Shown in pieces: positions 13,128 through 41,656 of a DNA stretch of 64,000 bases. A model generated the notes under the pieces. That model was not told the DNA's origin and ran no database searches. It saw only the letters and a list, made by a program, of their open reading frames with translations. Location of the stretch: assembly GCA_963772365.1 (NCBI GenBank), contig CAVYXA010000005.1, forward strand, positions 192,001-256,000. The letters run 5' to 3'. Position numbers and translations under genes: made by a program. Position 1 is the first letter of the stretch, and the number at the start of each line of letters is the position of its first letter. The DNA is from an uncultured Verrucomicrobiae bacterium (GTDB lineage: Bacteria; Verrucomicrobiota; Verrucomicrobiia; Chthoniobacterales; UBA10450).

Positions 13128-13197
13128 TGTAGCGGCGCTCTGTGAGCGTCGCAAAGTTCCCACCCAAGAATGGCGACGGTCACAGACCGCCGCTACA
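13128..13197. repeat. GTAG-type REP-like palindrome between convergent genes
   Basis: TGTAGCGGCG...CGCCGCTACA perfect 10-bp terminal IR, with inner complementarity (CTGTGA/TCACAG, GTCGC/GCGAC). Confidence 0.75.
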
Positions 13198-27307: not shown

Positions 27308-27317
27308 GAGATTCTAA

Positions 27318-27394
27318 GCCACAGATGAACACGGATGAAACACGGATGTAAAGGCCTCACTGCTGATCTGTGAAAATCCGTGCTAATCCGTGGC
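27318..27394. repeat. Empty tandem-inverted-repeat hairpin (CAC[AG]GAT unit)
   Basis: GCCACAGATGAACACGGATGAAACACGGAT ... ATCTGTGAAAATCCGTGCTAATCCGTGGC fills the intergenic gap. Confidence 0.8.
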
Positions 27395-28216
27395 CTAAAC
27401 TTTTCCAGCAAAGAACGGATTGTGCGCTTTTTCCTCTCCGATCGTCGTCATAGGCCCGTGCCCTGGGCAAATGATTGTTTCATCCCGCAGGGTGAGAATT
27501 TTATCGAGATTATTTCGAACTGCGTCGGCGTAGGAAATATTTCCACCTCCCATTGAGCCGGCGAAAATTGAATCGCCGGCGATTGCGACCGGCCGCGCGA
27601 GTCCGTTCGCGACGAATGTCATTCCGCCGGGCGAATGTCCCCAGGTCGAGCGTGCTTCGATGTCGATCTTTCCCAGGTGAAAATGTTTACCTTCCTCGAT
27701 CGATTCCGCCCCGGGCACGGATTCTTTCTGAGGTGCAAACACATGAGCGCCGGTTTCTTCGCGTAACCGTGGCAGATCTGCCACGTGATCGGGATGCGCG
27801 TGAGTTAGCAGAATCATTTGCACGTGGAGCTTGTGAGCTTTCACAAAGCGGAGCATTTCCCGGCAATCTGCGCCGGTATCGAATGCGGCGGCATTCCTGG
27901 TTTCTGGGTCCCAAACGAGATATGCGTTGACGAGCATTCCATCATAATCGGTGCTGAATTGGGCAAGCCCGTCGAGCTTGTCGATCTTCTTCGGCTTCCA
28001 CCTTTCTCTGGCAAGATCGACAAGCGCATCCGGATTGAGATCGAGCGCGGAGGCGACTGCGCGAATGGTCTCGTCGTCAAATTTGCCCTCGCGGAGCTGG
28101 CGAGCTTTTTCCTGCGTGACGCCTGCTTTTTCGGCAAGCTCGCTGTCGGAAATCCGCAGGCCGCGCTGCGCTTTGCCAATCACATCGCCAAAATTATCTT
28201 CGAGTGGAACGCTCAT
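27395..28216 (-). CDS. XRE-type HTH + MBL-fold metallo-hydrolase
   Basis: N-terminal SDSELAEKAGVT helix-turn-helix; THAHPDH, GHSPG, AGD, PGHG. Confidence 0.85.
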   Translation of the reverse strand: MSVPLEDNFGDVIGKAQRGLRISDSELAEKAGVTQEKARQLREGKFDDETIRAVASALDLNPDALVDLARERWKPKKIDKLDGLAQFSTDYDGMLVNAYLVWDPETRNAAAFDTGADCREMLRFVKAHKLHVQMILLTHAHPDHVADLPRLREETGAHVFAPQKESVPGAESIEEGKHFHLGKIDIEARSTWGHSPGGMTFVANGLARPVAIAGDSIFAGSMGGGNISYADAVRNNLDKILTLRDETIICPGHGPMTTIGEEKAHNPFFAGKV

Positions 28217-34792: not shown

Positions 34793-35259
34793 ATCTTGAT
34801 CATGCTCGTGCTCATGATCATGATCGAAGAATGAAGACATATTTCGATCACGAGAAGCTGGATGTTTATCAGGAGGCAATCGCCTTCTGCCGCTGGGTGG
34901 GTGAGTTCATCGGCGGCATCAATGCTAGGCTTGCGGCAAAAGACCAGCTCGATCGCGCTTCCACAAGCATTCCGCTTAATATCGCCGAAGGAAACGGCAA
35001 GCTTTCTAATGCTGATCGAGCACGATTTCTGGAAATAGGACGCGGCTCCGCTCTGGAGTGTGCCGCTTGTCTGGATGTCGTCGTCGCGCGCAGACTCGCT
35101 CAGCCCGATGATATTGTTGCCGCGAAAGAGCAGCTCGTCCGTATTGTAAATATGTTGATGGGGCTGTTGAAACGCTTTTCAGGCCGCGCCGAATTCTTGC
35201 GTGAAGATGAAGCACTTTATCACATCGATCATGATCAGGATCATGAGCATGATCATGAT
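34793..35259. mobile_element. Inverted-arm cassette 1 (35-nt hexamer-repeat arms around a four-helix-bundle gene)
   Basis: 34793-34827 matches the reverse complement of 35225-35259 at 31/35; mobility is inferred. Confidence 0.6.
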
Positions 35260-37329: not shown

Positions 37330-37793
37330 ATCTCTTCCTCTTCCTCTCCCTCTTAATCTTGATCCGAACATTAATCTCTATGCCGTTCCATCACGAAAAG
37401 CTGACCGTCTATCGACGAGCGTTAGAATTCGCGACTTGGTCGCAAATTCTCATCGACTCATTAACTAAAACGACCTCGACCCGCGATCACTTGGAGCGTG
37501 CCGGCGACAGCATTGCGTTGAATATCGCCGAGGGAAACGGCAAATTCTCACAGACAGATCGGGCCCGTTTTTTCCAGATCGCACACGGCTCGGCTCTTGA
37601 GTCCGCAGGATGCCTTGATCTTCTGGTCGCGCGAGGCTGTTGTGAAGGCGATGCAATCGTGAAAGGCAAAGCGCTGCTGGAAGAAATCGTAAAGATGCTT
37701 TTTAAGATGCTTGATCAACTGGGCTGCAGGATCGCGAAAGATGCGCCCGGCTACGGGGAGGCAGCAGACGAAGAGGAAGCGGAAGAGGAAGAT
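37330..37793. mobile_element. Inverted-arm cassette 2 (CTCTTC/GAAGAG hexamer arms around a four-helix-bundle gene)
   Basis: 37333-37347 matches the reverse complement of 37778-37792 at 14/15; mobility is inferred. Confidence 0.5.
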
Positions 37794-37796
37794 TGA
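37380..37796 (+). CDS. Four-helix-bundle protein (23S IVS/Avd-like family)
   Basis: FHHEKLTVY, DHLERAGDSIALNIAEG, RFFQIAHGSALES. Confidence 0.9.
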   Translation: MPFHHEKLTVYRRALEFATWSQILIDSLTKTTSTRDHLERAGDSIALNIAEGNGKFSQTDRARFFQIAHGSALESAGCLDLLVARGCCEGDAIVKGKALLEEIVKMLFKMLDQLGCRIAKDAPGYGEAADEEEAEEED

Positions 37797-38330: not shown

Positions 38331-38409
38331 GCCACAGCTTGACACAGATGTTCGCCGATTTTTCAGATTTCGATCTTACATCTGTGTTTGATCTGTGTTC
38401 ATCTGTGGC
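38331..38409. repeat. Empty tandem-inverted-repeat hairpin (CACAGAT unit) between nuoI and nuoJ
   Basis: GCCACAGCTTGACACAGAT ... ATCTGTGTTTGATCTGTGTTCATCTGTGGC. Confidence 0.8.
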
Positions 38410-38416
38410 TTGAAAA

Positions 38417-38920
38417 ATGTCTGCATTTCTTTTCTGGATATTCGCGATCATGATGCTGGTGTTCGGCGCGGCCGTGATCATCGTGCGCAATCCAGTGGCC
38501 AGCGCGCTGAATCTGGTGATGTCGTTCCTCGGGCTGGCAGCGCTTTTCATTTTGCTCGATGCTTACTTCATCGGCATCATCCAGGTCCTCGTTTATGCCG
38601 GAGCGGTGATGGTGCTGTTCCTTTTCATCATCATGCTTTTGAACCTGCGGGCCGAGGAAGCGCGACGAATCAACTGGCCGACCGGTATGGGGGCGATCGC
38701 GGTCGGTCAGCTTCTGATGTTCCAGATTTTTTTTGTCGTCGCGCATTTTAAAGCCGCCGCGCAACCATTTCCGCCGTTACCAACATCGACAATCGATGAC
38801 GTCCGAAACGTCGGCGCCTTGTTGTTCGCCAATTACAATCTGCCATTTCAGATCATTGGCGTGCTGGTGCTCGTCGCCACAATTGGCGTAGTTCTTCTGA
38901 GCAAGCGCGAAACGAAATAA
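38417..38920 (+). CDS. nuoJ: NADH-quinone oxidoreductase subunit J
   Basis: RNPV.SAL, QVLVYAGAVMVLFLFIIMLL. Confidence 0.95.
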   Translation: MSAFLFWIFAIMMLVFGAAVIIVRNPVASALNLVMSFLGLAALFILLDAYFIGIIQVLVYAGAVMVLFLFIIMLLNLRAEEARRINWPTGMGAIAVGQLLMFQIFFVVAHFKAAAQPFPPLPTSTIDDVRNVGALLFANYNLPFQIIGVLVLVATIGVVLLSKRETK

Positions 38921-38933
38921 GATGAAACTTTTA

Positions 38934-39037
38934 GCCCGCGAATCACGCGAATGCGCGCGAATGAGAGAGATGCAAAAGCCCACTCTCAAGCTCAGCTCAT
39001 ATCTATTTCTTCGCGTCTATTCGCGTGATTCGCGGGC
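38934..39037. repeat. Empty tandem-inverted-repeat hairpin (CGCGAAT unit) between nuoJ and nuoK
   Basis: GCCCGCGAATCACGCGAAT ... ATTCGCGTGATTCGCGGGC, perfect 19-bp IR. Confidence 0.85.
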
Positions 39038-39049
39038 CGAAAGAATAGC

Positions 39050-39370
39050 ATGATTACACTCGGACAATACCTGATCGCCAGCGGAATTTTGTTCGCAATC
39101 GGATTTGCCGGAGTGATCCTGCGTCGAAATCTCATTGTCATTTTGATGTCGCTCGAATTGATGTTGAATGCGGCCAATCTCTCGCTGGTGGCGTTCTCCC
39201 GATTTCGTGTCGATCCAACTGGTATGCCGAATTACAACGCGCAGGTCTTCGTTTTTTTCATCATCACCGTGGCGGCGGCTGAAGTCGCCGTTGGCCTTGC
39301 CATCATCGTAGCTCTCTATCGCCTCCGCCAGACCACCGATGTAAAAGACATCAGCAGTTTGAAATTTTGA
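39050..39370 (+). CDS. nuoK: NADH-quinone oxidoreductase subunit K
   Basis: [29 protein letters not shown]. Confidence 0.95.
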
Positions 39371-39851
39371 GCCCGCGAATCACGCGAATCAAAGCGAATT
39401 ATGACGGAAATCATTCATAGGAAAGAAAGTTACGCGATTATCGGGGCCTGCTTTGAGGTCTACAATGATAAGGGCTGTGGGTTTCTCGAACCGGTTTATC
39501 AGGAATGTCTCGGCATCGAATTTGAATACCAGCGGGTACCAGCGATTCCTAAACCGTTCCTCACCCTCAATTACCGTGGACGTATTTTGACACAAACTTA
39601 CGTGCCGGATTTCGTTTGCTTCGAAAAAATTATCGTTGAACTGAAAGCGGTATCGGCCCTAATCGACGAGCACCGGGCTCAGCTCCTGAATTACCTGCAC
39701 GCCACCGGCTTCGAGCTAGGCCTATTAGTGAATTTTGGCCATTACCCGAAACTTGAACATGAACGCATTGCAAAGACTCGGTACATACCACCAAAATCCG
39801 ACTTTTCAGATGTGTCTTTGTAAATTCGCGTTAATTCGCGTGATTCGCGGG
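39371..39851. mobile_element. Inverted-arm cassette 3 (CGCGAAT arms around the GxxExxY gene)
   Basis: 39372-39400 matches the reverse complement of 39823-39851 at 27/29; arms abut the ATG and the stop. Confidence 0.7.
39401..39823 (+). CDS. GxxExxY protein (PD-(D/E)XK nuclease-like fold)
   Basis: GFLEPVY, PDF...IIVELKA, AQLLNYL..TG...GLLVNFG. Confidence 0.92.
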   Translation: MTEIIHRKESYAIIGACFEVYNDKGCGFLEPVYQECLGIEFEYQRVPAIPKPFLTLNYRGRILTQTYVPDFVCFEKIIVELKAVSALIDEHRAQLLNYLHATGFELGLLVNFGHYPKLEHERIAKTRYIPPKSDFSDVSL

Positions 39852-39859
39852 TCAATCCA

Positions 39860-41656
39860 ATGAATTCAATCTTGCCATGGATCATTCTGCTCGCGCCGCT
39901 GGTATCCGCGGTGATGATCACCGTCTTTACACTTCGCTCGAGAAAATTGAGCAGTTTCATCTCGGTCGCGGCTGTGTTCGTGAGTTTTGTCTGCAGTTGT
40001 TTGCTGTTCGTTCGAGGAAATCTTCCCGCTGTCGAGCTGAACTGGATCGACATTAGCGGCGGCCTGAGTGTTCCGCTCGGATTCCTATTAGATCAATTGA
40101 GCAAAACAATGCTCGTTCTGGTGTCGGGCGTTGGTTTGATCATTCACATTTATTCGCTCGGCTACATGCGCGGCGATGATGGCAAATCCCGCTATTTCGC
40201 CGGTCTGTCGCTCTTCATGTTCGCGATGCTCGGGATCGTCCTTTCGAACAATTTCGTCATGCTCTTTATTTTTTGGGAGCTGGTCGGCTTTACCTCCTAT
40301 TTGTTGATTGGGCATTGGTTTGAGCGGAACGCAGCTGCGGACGCCGCGAAGAAGGCTTTCATCACGACCCGAATCGGCGACTTCGGATTCATGCTGGGCA
40401 TCCTCATGATTTGGATGCCGACGGGCTCCGTGGTTTTTTCCGAACTGGCCGAGCGGATGTCGATCCTGACAGATCATCCCGCCTATGTGACTGCTGCCGC
40501 GCTTTTGATCTTTTGCGGTGCAGTTGGGAAATCGGCCCAATTTCCGCTGCACGTGTGGTTGCCCGACGCCATGGAAGGTCCGACACCGGTTTCGGCGTTG
40601 ATCCACGCCGCGACGATGGTGGCAGCGGGAGTTTACATGCTGGCGCGCGTCGGGTTCATCATTCAAACCTCGCCAGCGGCTCTCGCGGTTATCGCATGGA
40701 TTGGCACCATCACCGCGCTCATGGCCGCGTTGATGGCGACGCAGCAGGACGATATCAAACGCATCCTGGCCTATTCTACTCTCTCGCAACTTGGTTACAT
40801 GGTGATGGCAATCGGGCTGACCTCGAGCAGCGCGGCCATGTTTCACCTTTTTACCCACGCATTTTTCAAAGCGCTGCTCTTTCTCGGCGCCGGTTCGATC
40901 ATCGTTGCGCTGCATCACGAACAAGACATTTGGGAAATGGGCGGCCTTGCGCGGAATTTGAAGTTAACGTTCGTCACCTTTTTGATCGGCGGACTTGCCC
41001 TCATGGGTTGCCCACCGTTCAGCGGATTTTTCAGTAAGGATGCAATCCTGGCGCTGGCCTACGAAAAAAACATGCCGATCTTCGTGCTCGGCCTCGGCAC
41101 GGCGTTTCTGACTGCCTTTTACGCGACGCGGATGTTGGTGGTCGTGTTCTTTGGCCATCCGCGCGGGCATGCTGCGCGGGTGAGCCGGGAGTCACCGCTT
41201 GTCATGACCCTTCCCCTGATTGCGCTCGCCGGGCTCGTGATTCTGAGCAGCATCGAATCTTTCAATCAACGATTTCTTCCGCTCCCGACCGAAAGCGGGG
41301 CGTCTCGAAATGTCCTGCTATTAGCCACCGGTGCATTGGTTTTCGGTGCAGGCCTGGCGATCTTGTTTTATCGTGGGCGCGCCACCGAGGCGGTGCACGT
41401 CAATCTTCTCCGGCGCCGTTTTTACATCGACGACTTTTATCAGTGGTTGATTCACTGGACGCAGGACCTGCTCGCGCGCGTTTCAGCTTTTTTTGATCGC
41501 TGGATTATCGACGCCCTAGCCGTGCGCGGCACCAGTGGCGGAACATGGGGAATCGGTGCCGTGCTTCGGCTCATTCAGGTCGGTAATCTCCAAGCCTATG
41601 CGTTCCTGCTCGGTCTCGGCGTCATTGCCCTGATCTATTTCGCGCTGTCGGGGTAA
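39860..41656 (+). CDS. nuoL: NADH-quinone oxidoreductase subunit L
   Basis: GKSAQFPLHVWLPDAMEGPTPVSALIHAATMV. Confidence 0.97.
   Translation: MNSILPWIILLAPLVSAVMITVFTLRSRKLSSFISVAAVFVSFVCSCLLFVRGNLPAVELNWIDISGGLSVPLGFLLDQLSKTMLVLVSGVGLIIHIYSLGYMRGDDGKSRYFAGLSLFMFAMLGIVLSNNFVMLFIFWELVGFTSYLLIGHWFERNAAADAAKKAFITTRIGDFGFMLGILMIWMPTGSVVFSELAERMSILTDHPAYVTAAALLIFCGAVGKSAQFPLHVWLPDAMEGPTPVSALIHAATMVAAGVYMLARVGFIIQTSPAALAVIAWIGTITALMAALMATQQDDIKRILAYSTLSQLGYMVMAIGLTSSSAAMFHLFTHAFFKALLFLGAGSIIVALHHEQDIWEMGGLARNLKLTFVTFLIGGLALMGCPPFSGFFSKDAILALAYEKNMPIFVLGLGTAFLTAFYATRMLVVVFFGHPRGHAARVSRESPLVMTLPLIALAGLVILSSIESFNQRFLPLPTESGASRNVLLLATGALVFGAGLAILFYRGRATEAVHVNLLRRRFYIDDFYQWLIHWTQDLLARVSAFFDRWIIDALAVRGTSGGTWGIGAVLRLIQVGNLQAYAFLLGLGVIALIYFALSG

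Follow-up and report, generated by a model that had tools for sequence, protein, structure and literature searches.

Two copies of one short inverted repeat lie on either side of nuoK in a stretch of 64,000 nucleotides (nt) from an uncultured Verrucomicrobiae bacterium (contig CAVYXA010000005.1, positions 192,001–256,000; hereafter the window, equivalent to C5:192001-256000 of the genome designated G000). The copy between nuoK and nuoL encloses a gene for a GxxExxY protein, the copy between nuoJ and nuoK encloses only a short spacer, and the locus thus raises the question of how the filled and the empty copy are related and whether the GxxExxY protein has a part in producing them. The original prediction, made from the letters alone, saw in them an autonomous and a non-autonomous element analogous to RAYT genes and REPINs, with GxxExxY as the candidate mobilising nuclease. 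The explanation that we favour, with a probability of around 0.55 for the whole of it, inferred steps included, is that the two copies are adjacent representatives of a single family of small-gene cassettes bounded by hairpins, built like the intervening sequences of 23S rRNA genes that carry an open reading frame (ORF). This cassette family is widespread and apparently undescribed outside rRNA.

The 19-mer GCCCGCGAATCACGCGAAT occurs without mismatch on the plus strand at 38934 and 39371, exactly as claimed, and the minus strand has a perfect copy at 39019 and one with 1 mismatch at 39834; these four matches compare with 0.09 expected, and four were reached in 0 of 100 dinucleotide shuffles. 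Each arm of both elements consists of three 7-nt units spaced 9–10 nt apart. The first element lies between nuoJ (38417..38920, stop codon 38918-38920, this gene and the other genes and arms of this paragraph being given on the plus strand; NCBIfam model NuoJ NF005164, E 2.1e-36, 125.3 bits, under the model's 154-bit cut-off) and the ATG of nuoK at 39050 (nuoK 39050..39370, stop codon 39368-39370; NCBIfam NuoK, E 3.9e-33). Its arms measure 34 nt and are 85 % complementary, the 5′ arm (38928..38961) containing three CGCGAAT units and the 3′ arm lying at 39010..39043; the 48 nt measured between them agree with the claimed non-coding spacer of about 47 nt. In the second element the copy of the 19-mer begins at 39371, the first base past the nuoK stop codon, and the arms (39372..39400, with two CGCGAAT units and one AGCGAAT, and 39823..39851) measure 29 nt, pair at 27 of 29 positions (93 %) and stand 422 nt apart. 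The enclosed ORF has its ATG at 39401, directly after the end of the 5′ arm, and the 3′ arm shares the last base of its TAA (39821-39823); nuoL follows at 39860..41656 (NCBIfam NuoL, E 5.3e-194). All the coordinates of the geometry predicted for this copy (nuoK stop, GxxExxY ATG, 27/29 pairing, arm over the gene's stop) hold, and the matched filled and empty pair is borne out, both copies belonging to one element family. As RNA, the nuoJ–nuoK spacer has a predicted fold of −62.4 kcal/mol (z −8.0, equalled by 0 of 200 shuffles) and the whole nuoK–nuoL cassette one of −154.2 kcal/mol (z −3.3, equalled by 0 of 100 shuffles), in which the arms are predicted to pair with the start codon within the stem.

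The ORF in the second element (39401..39823) is an intact gene of 140 codons whose product matches the GxxExxY models TIGR04256 (126.7 bits, cut-off 35, E 5.4e-37) and PF13366 (129 bits, cut-off 22, E 1.4e-37). The catalytic residues D70, E80 and K82, together with G27, E30 and Q94, were invariant in 41 sequences from many phyla, and Y33, which with G27 and E30 makes up the GxxExxY motif, was present in at least 90 % of them. The predicted model of the protein (pLDDT 90.2) has a minimal PD-(D/E)XK core, and its closest solved folds were Cas4 SSO0001 (E 4.3e-4, TM 0.55), lambda exonuclease and restriction-endonuclease-like proteins. Taken as a clue to the substrate, this fold search matched only the generic core and points to no substrate; a sequence search of solved structures gave weak matches only (T7 endonuclease I, E 0.13) and was not used as evidence.

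The age of both elements was examined in the nuoJ–nuoL region taken from 40 relatives, with genes mapped by tblastn, which yielded 19 loci with both nuoK and nuoL, G000 included. Unpublished genomes (G003, G008 and G014) enter some of the counts, and the conclusions are independent of them. A cassette was found between nuoK and nuoL in seven of the 19 loci (G000, G011, G009, where it is frameshifted, G022, G001, G017 and G021); the junction was tight (about 2–21 nt) in 11 (10 of 18 without the unpublished G008), and G004 carried a different repeat. The orthologous GxxExxY proteins share 62–76 % identity, with nonsynonymous divergence (dN) of 0.09–0.30 among the six intact ones; Nei-Gojobori synonymous divergence was saturated (undefined) in 14 of 15 pairs, which left a sole quotable ratio of 0.10. 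The comparison shows that this cassette is complete and old, and that its gene is intact, oriented in the sense of the operon and under purifying selection. The GxxExxY protein and units of G000 are nearer to those of G011 (76 %, CGCGAAT) than to those of G001, which belongs to the same genus (67 %, CGCCAAA), whereas its NuoJ, NuoK and NuoL are 82, 92 and 79 % identical to those of G001 and 71, 84 and 73 % to those of G011. The history of the cassette thus appears to differ from that of its flanks, and replacement, gene conversion or unequal rates could account for this.

The same 19 loci show where the empty copy came from. The nuoJ–nuoK junction is tight in 14 of them; the spacers with arms of the same type measure 328 nt in G011, 174 nt in G009, 139 nt in G022 and 132 nt in G000, and that of G001 (158 nt) has arms of another unit. 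The G011 insert encodes GxxExxY residues 1–48, after which the frame breaks; it matches TIGR04256 at positions 2–42 (E 5.9e-10) and, with the window's nuoK–nuoL GxxExxY protein as the query, shows 51 % identity over residues 1–73. The spacers of the four genomes align at both ends, that is, over the arm and start region on one side and the tail and arm on the other, and their internal gaps are nested. Since relatives keep nested deletion intermediates at this very site, the hairpin at 38928-39043 was once a full cassette there, and is now the relic of a second, paralogous GxxExxY cassette whose interior was lost by deletions in place; its 48-nt loop (38962..39009, plus strand) is the residue of the gene, comprising the ATG region and the tail adjoining the 3′ arm. 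The claim that the nuoJ–nuoK hairpin is a transposed non-autonomous element is contradicted by the G011 pseudogene and by the shorter remnants in G009, G022 and G000. The nuoJ–nuoK copy resembles those miniature inverted-repeat elements that derive from a full element through internal deletion: it keeps both arms, lacks the interior and belongs to a nested deletion series. It differs from them in that the deletions occurred in place at one orthologous site, with no sign of later movement.

A literal REPIN model, in which the nuoK–nuoL nuclease copied the nuoJ–nuoK hairpin into place in trans, would account for the identity of the 19-nt arm cores and for the fact that the two elements of G000, and likewise those of G009, have arms more similar to each other than to the orthologous arms. 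It would also suit the excess of arms over genes in the family as a whole, as in genome G201, with 212 arms and one gene. The pseudogene in the orthologous spacer of G011 and the nested remnants in G009, G022 and G000 nevertheless argue against it, as does the near absence of CGCGAAT arms from the rest of G000, and we consider copying of this kind improbable.

The two elements belong to a larger set within G000, which contains six GxxExxY loci (one frameshifted) and 12 four-helix-bundle genes. All six GxxExxY loci lie inside inverted repeats of 22–30 nt with three tandem units each, and the unit is different at every locus: CACAGAG, CGCAGAT, CGCGAAT, CACGGAT, ACAGAAT and CAGGAAAG. A co-directional reading frame lies upstream of all six (five identified by script, nuoK from the ORF list) and downstream of five. 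A first genome-wide scan for inverted repeats (score at least 18, mismatch −2) missed most gene-less hairpins because the gene-less arms are imperfect, and the unit pattern recovered them: three units of the form CRC(A/C/G)RA(A/T/G) gave 40 matches in G000, compared with 0–3 in shuffles. A fuzzy search with the arm of each cassette, four-helix-bundle families included, gave 2–17 matches, compared with 0–3 for shuffled arms, and most of the six GxxExxY loci have matching gene-less copies elsewhere. The CACRGAT family has a single filled copy, at C5:174727-175187, whereas its gene-less hairpins number at least 11 and have conserved ends (AGC/CAC...GTG/GCT); the window contains two of these hairpins (27315-27397 and 38331-38409). 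The CAGGAAAG unit has 15 arms, including five gene-less hairpins, and the AGTGACG family, related to the TGACGAA family of G001, has 14. Among the 12 four-helix-bundle genes, whose units are of other kinds, the arms score at least 16 in six and 11–14 in five, and one has none.

Two further features of the GxxExxY paralogues were seen in G000. The frameshifted cassette, with CAGGAAAG units (G000:C1:1337120-1337591), lies between two co-directional long reading frames. The paralogues are 33–39 % identical and have tails of unequal length, which mostly finish in (V/I)(S/Y)L-stop right before the 3′ arm; at one locus this ending lies past the 3′ arm. The shared ending could be a nucleotide-level signal beside the arm.

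With this wider family, the alternative named in the original prediction, a unique local duplication, turns out to be half true, because CGCGAAT arms are essentially limited to the nuo locus in G000 (four of five matches). Such a restriction is what a chance likeness or a trivial recent local duplication, without wider meaning, would also leave. Four matches were however never reached in the 100 shuffles, both elements occupy the same sites in other genera and the same design is found at loci from many phyla, so that this explanation is already refuted and can be set aside with hardly any reserve.

The build of the cassettes has a precedent in rRNA. The intervening sequence in helix 45 of the Coxiella burnetii 23S rRNA is described as having a 28-bp stem formed by terminal inverted repeats, three tandem GACAGAT heptamers ahead of the start of the S23p ORF, and experimentally shown cleavage of the stem by RNase III at the first repeat; its ORF is decaying, and ORF-carrying 23S intervening sequences are also mentioned from Leptospira and others (PMC4990558). 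Measured against that account, the nuoK–nuoL cassette is alike in its stem of roughly 28 bp enclosing a small ORF (here 29-nt arms, 27/29 paired, the stem being predicted), in the three heptamers before the ORF start (CGCGAAT or CACRGAT instead of GACAGAT) and in the decay of the ORF by deletion; in addition, the S23p family PF05635 is that of the ORF in a neighbouring cassette of the window (37359-37796). The elements described here differ in lying in spacers of a protein-coding operon (nuoJ, nuoK, nuoL) and not in rRNA, in encoding a PD-(D/E)XK nuclease and not a four-helix bundle, and in having dispersed gene-less copies. The 23S gene of G000 (C1:1565628-1568501) has no insert, since its 2874 nt match the whole 2925-position model. 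A full-text search, with subscription journals outside its scope, found no paper on this type of cassette outside rRNA and none on GxxExxY cassettes, their arms or gene-less copies, nor one linking REPINs or RAYTs to a four-helix bundle or intervening-sequence protein.

This precedent invites an explanation at the level of RNA only: the arms would just form a stem that RNase III cuts to free the cassette from the transcript, the protein would be unrelated to the arms, the gene-less hairpins would be inert relics and the link with the gene would reflect shared history. The match with the Coxiella element and its experimentally cut stem (PMC4990558, as described there) speaks for it, and so do the strong predicted stems with the start codon inside them, the sense orientation of the cassettes in operons, the relic formation seen at nuoJ–nuoK and the design shared by the four-helix-bundle cassettes. 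The arms themselves do not behave as expected of a stem kept for its pairing. In 54 cassettes, mismatches between the two arms amounted to 3.5 % (30/846) at the six core unit positions, a rate biased low because the units were chosen by pattern on one arm, to 22.7 % at unit position 4 and to 27.5 % (63/229) in the 2–3-nt spacers. The mismatches in 68 cassettes (249 of 2156 paired positions) were of G:U type in the sense RNA in 48 cases, in the antisense RNA in 62 and in neither in 139, with no excess of G:U on the sense strand. Among the nuoK–nuoL orthologues, G000 and G011 carry T at position 7 in each of their six units, the other genomes carry A there in each of theirs, and position 4 varies without compensation. 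These patterns suggest that the constraint on the arms acts on the units and not on their pairing, and that the arms resemble arrays of recognition sites rather than a helix maintained by pairing.

The arms and the gene were also compared in other genomes. A scan of one genome per species gave 573 relatives of the GxxExxY protein; flanks were analysed for the best 80 of these, 74 of which had full flanks. An inverted repeat with a score of at least 16 was present at 53 of the 74 loci, from many phyla, compared with 10 of 216 permuted pairs, a control that is inflated because the arms of different loci are alike. Nearly all such loci have CRCNRAW units and an outer end like TTTTAGCC. In a phylum survey of 251 genomes, in which counts of the triple-unit pattern were merged with TIGR04256 matches, the median arm count was 27 in the 134 genomes with the gene and 2 (maximum 12) in the 117 without it, and the reversed-pattern control gave a median of 1 in either group. 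Twenty or more arms occurred in 77 of the 134 and in none of the 117, and arm count was correlated with the gene (Spearman 0.72), although these statistics overstate independence because the surveyed genomes are related. The prediction was to fall if the arms were equally common in genomes lacking GxxExxY, which at the family level they are not; the idea survives the comparison of arm frequencies, and the link between gene and arms is not one-to-one. The 212 arms of G201 are all of the unit type flanking its single gene, G064 behaves likewise, and G099 and G161 have the gene with canonical arms. G285 combines several unit families with one weak gene. Gene-less families reach 150–270 arm matches in some genomes, which is hard to explain by inert relics alone. 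In G001, three tandem TGACGAA units gave 153 matches (control 0), mostly hairpins with 60–100 nt between the arms, and copies lie, among other places, between nuoJ and nuoK and in the counterpart of the spacer that holds the window hairpin at 27315-27397. Two G001 pairs of TGACGAA arms lie 480–550 nt apart (C6:857223-857734 and C6:1647286-1647851) and may hold the gene of that family.

Single spacers were also compared across genera for changes of occupant. Unit hairpins, of at least five unit types, occur in the nuoI–nuoJ spacer of 10 of 15 relatives (9 of 14 without G008); one relative has a lone arm there and four have neither. In the window this spacer contains a gene-less hairpin with CACAGAT units (38331..38409, arms 38331-38349 and 38391-38409, 84 % complementary), whose unit family is that of the GxxExxY cassette at G000:C5:174727-175187 (pattern match at C5:230380). 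The CACGGAT hairpin at 27315-27397 lies precisely in the gap that separates a stop codon from the following start on the minus strand. In relatives the corresponding spacer is tight in seven and carries four-helix-bundle (TIGR02436) cassettes in four; G001 has a TGACGAA hairpin there, G021 a CACAGAT one, and further relatives hold other or REP-like repeats. Single spacers are thus occupied repeatedly, and the presence at one spacer of different cassettes, or of none, in different genera is read as a sign of mobility.

Strand polarity was followed in G201, in which most copies are single arms in same-strand arrays. The orientation of these solo arms switches at the sampled GC-skew switches, near 2.0 and 5.0 Mb. 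The two sides hold 9:2 and 0:17 loci by orientation (Fisher 8e-6), for a gene-strand bias of 57:46 and 60:73, as derived from a BLAST match list and sampled stretches. As a marker of the origin, dnaA (0.61 Mb) coincides with neither skew switch and does not identify the leading strand. In G273, a second complete genome, arm orientation was mixed in 19 sampled stretches. A DNA-level process behind the polarity is therefore a lead from one genome and not established for the family. G201 also has, at C1:75940-76640 and 475000-475760, tandem modules of 100–170 nt on one strand that end in an A-run, three ATCTGYG units and GATAG; those near 76 kb carry in addition a GC-rich mini-hairpin, and one module array lies directly 3′ of the genome's single GxxExxY gene.

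Solo arms in same-strand arrays are unable to form a stem, and their orientation in G201 tracks GC skew and not gene direction. With the lack of conserved pairing and the size of the gene-less families, this makes the RNA-only explanation doubtful, although of the alternatives to the cassette family considered for this pair it is the one to be taken most seriously.

A different possibility is that unlinked machinery moves the unit-array hairpins and that the GxxExxY and four-helix-bundle genes, for instance as defence or addiction genes, serve as exchangeable passengers in the loop. Two unrelated protein families do occur in the same kind of cassette, one site may, depending on the genus, be occupied by a four-helix-bundle cassette or by a hairpin, of GxxExxY type or another, or be empty, and the large TGACGAA family of G001 lies away from its GxxExxY genes. 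Against such a passenger role, the unit type follows the protein subfamily across phyla (relatives of 46–76 % identity have nearly all CRCNRAW units, and the four-helix-bundle units of G000 differ), and the abundance of CRCNRAW arms follows the presence of GxxExxY. The sole candidate movers found were Y1 transposases, which sit in their own, different REP-type repeats. Matches to Y1_Tnp occur at nine places in G000, none of them in the window, and PF01797 matches lie inside TGTAG-headed inverted repeats of 25–30 nt at G000:C1:514891-515448, C1:530875-531489, C3:129787-130295 and C1:1241691-1242249; these repeats are also dispersed as short hairpins, for example at 13128-13197 in the window. 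G000 therefore contains classical RAYT/REP-like systems in addition to its unit-array cassettes, and we regard the cargo explanation as rather unlikely.

Under the preferred reading, that of adjacent members of one cassette family, the arms would be arrays of recognition units for the protein that the cassette encodes, beyond a mere stem. In DNA, the GxxExxY nuclease would act where its own unit type forms arrays, possibly when the replication fork exposes them as single strands. Such action could give complete cassettes access to the gaps of a few bases that separate one gene's stop codon from the following start codon, and might also preserve gene-less arrays of that unit and homogenise them within the genome. 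In the operon transcript the arms would form a stem masking the start codon, and RNase III should cut this stem, by analogy with the intervening sequences.

Several observations weigh against this explanation. The four-helix-bundle cassettes have the same build and their own gene-less copies without a nuclease fold, and consequently the nuclease is not a general explanation of the cassettes; GxxExxY as the mobiliser is an unproven candidate, weakened by these cassettes, which appear to behave alike. No target-site duplication was seen at either element in comparison with the tight junctions of relatives. The loops of the 11 CACRGAT hairpins are unrelated in length and sequence, and a unit that is copied whole would look otherwise. 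Between 6 and 12 arm matches occur in 29 of the 117 genomes without the gene, and in G172, a genome with 40 arms, none of this kind flank the only GxxExxY gene. G285 and G099 contain unit families without a matching gene, and none of the TGACGAA copies of G001 stands beside one of its four GxxExxY genes. The selection of units by one arm, the relatedness of the surveyed genomes and the single-genome basis of the polarity count on the same side.

The analogy with RAYT genes and REPINs, as these are described by Bertels and Rainey (2011; PMC3116915), holds in part. Common to these systems and the cassette family as a whole, on that description, are a low-copy gene flanked by a repeat that is also scattered gene-less in extragenic space, often as inverted doublets capable of forming hairpins, a repeat family of its own for each paralogue, long and mostly vertical inheritance, and strand polarity relative to replication, seen here in one genome. 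Unlike a RAYT, GxxExxY has a PD-(D/E)XK fold (PF13366) and is not an HUH Y1 transposase; unlike the REPINs of that account, the arms are arrays of three 7-nt units and not a short palindrome with a conserved head, the loops of gene-less copies are not conserved and copy numbers in G000 are low. A repeat flanking the gene and found elsewhere was seen for other GxxExxY paralogues (CACRGAT, CAGGAAAG), whereas the CGCGAAT cassette has five arm matches, four of them local. The analogy proposed by the original prediction hence stands at the family level, with its own unit per paralogue, gene-less copies and gene–arm link, and fails for the pair itself, whose arms are local, whose protein is not a RAYT and whose empty copy was not mobilised.

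The ends of Tn7 or Mu consist of several transposase-binding repeats, and the arms are similar to them in having spaced copies of a short unit, inverted at both ends, with conserved units and free spacers. They differ in that no transposase is linked to the GxxExxY cassette, and strand transfer by a 140-residue nuclease alone is not known.

A broader and frankly speculative proposal, which we hold to be possible but doubtful, is that there exists, independently of RAYTs, a second class of repeat-plus-gene systems whose nucleases are the GxxExxY proteins. Every paralogue would recognise three-copy arrays of its own 7-nt unit, act on them in single-stranded DNA at the replication fork, and, in operon spacers across many phyla, seed and maintain populations of gene-less arrays that reach a few hundred arm matches in a genome, the ORF-carrying 23S intervening sequences being the sole described corner of this class.

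The large PF13366/GxxExxY family is entered with unknown function in a table of PMC3424549, and the ORFs of 23S intervening sequences have been puzzling since the 1990s. The nuo locus and its relatives display the stages of such an element: presence or absence at one site, long vertical persistence with an intact gene, stepwise decay to a bare hairpin and concerted change of the arms. The phylum survey adds a quantitative tie between the nuclease gene and the abundance of unit arrays, and the testable hypothesis is that of a sequence-specific nuclease linked to its own repeat arrays. Hairpins and small ORFs inside core operons such as nuo also affect annotation, operon models and alignment-based comparison.

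Two four-helix-bundle cassettes were noted in the window besides the elements flanking nuoK. One of them lies upstream of nuoI (37333..37792, plus strand), with a 27-nt inverted repeat that is 85 % complementary (arms 37333-37359 and 37766-37792) and TCTTCC-type units; its ORF (37359-37796) matches TIGR02436 (E 1.4e-17) and PF05635 (E 3.6e-19). The other, at 34793-35259, has 35-nt arms that are 89 % complementary, ATCATG and CTCATG units, and an ORF that matches TIGR02436 (G000:C5:226864-227175); a gene-less element resembling this cassette lies at G000:C1:1218703-1218798.

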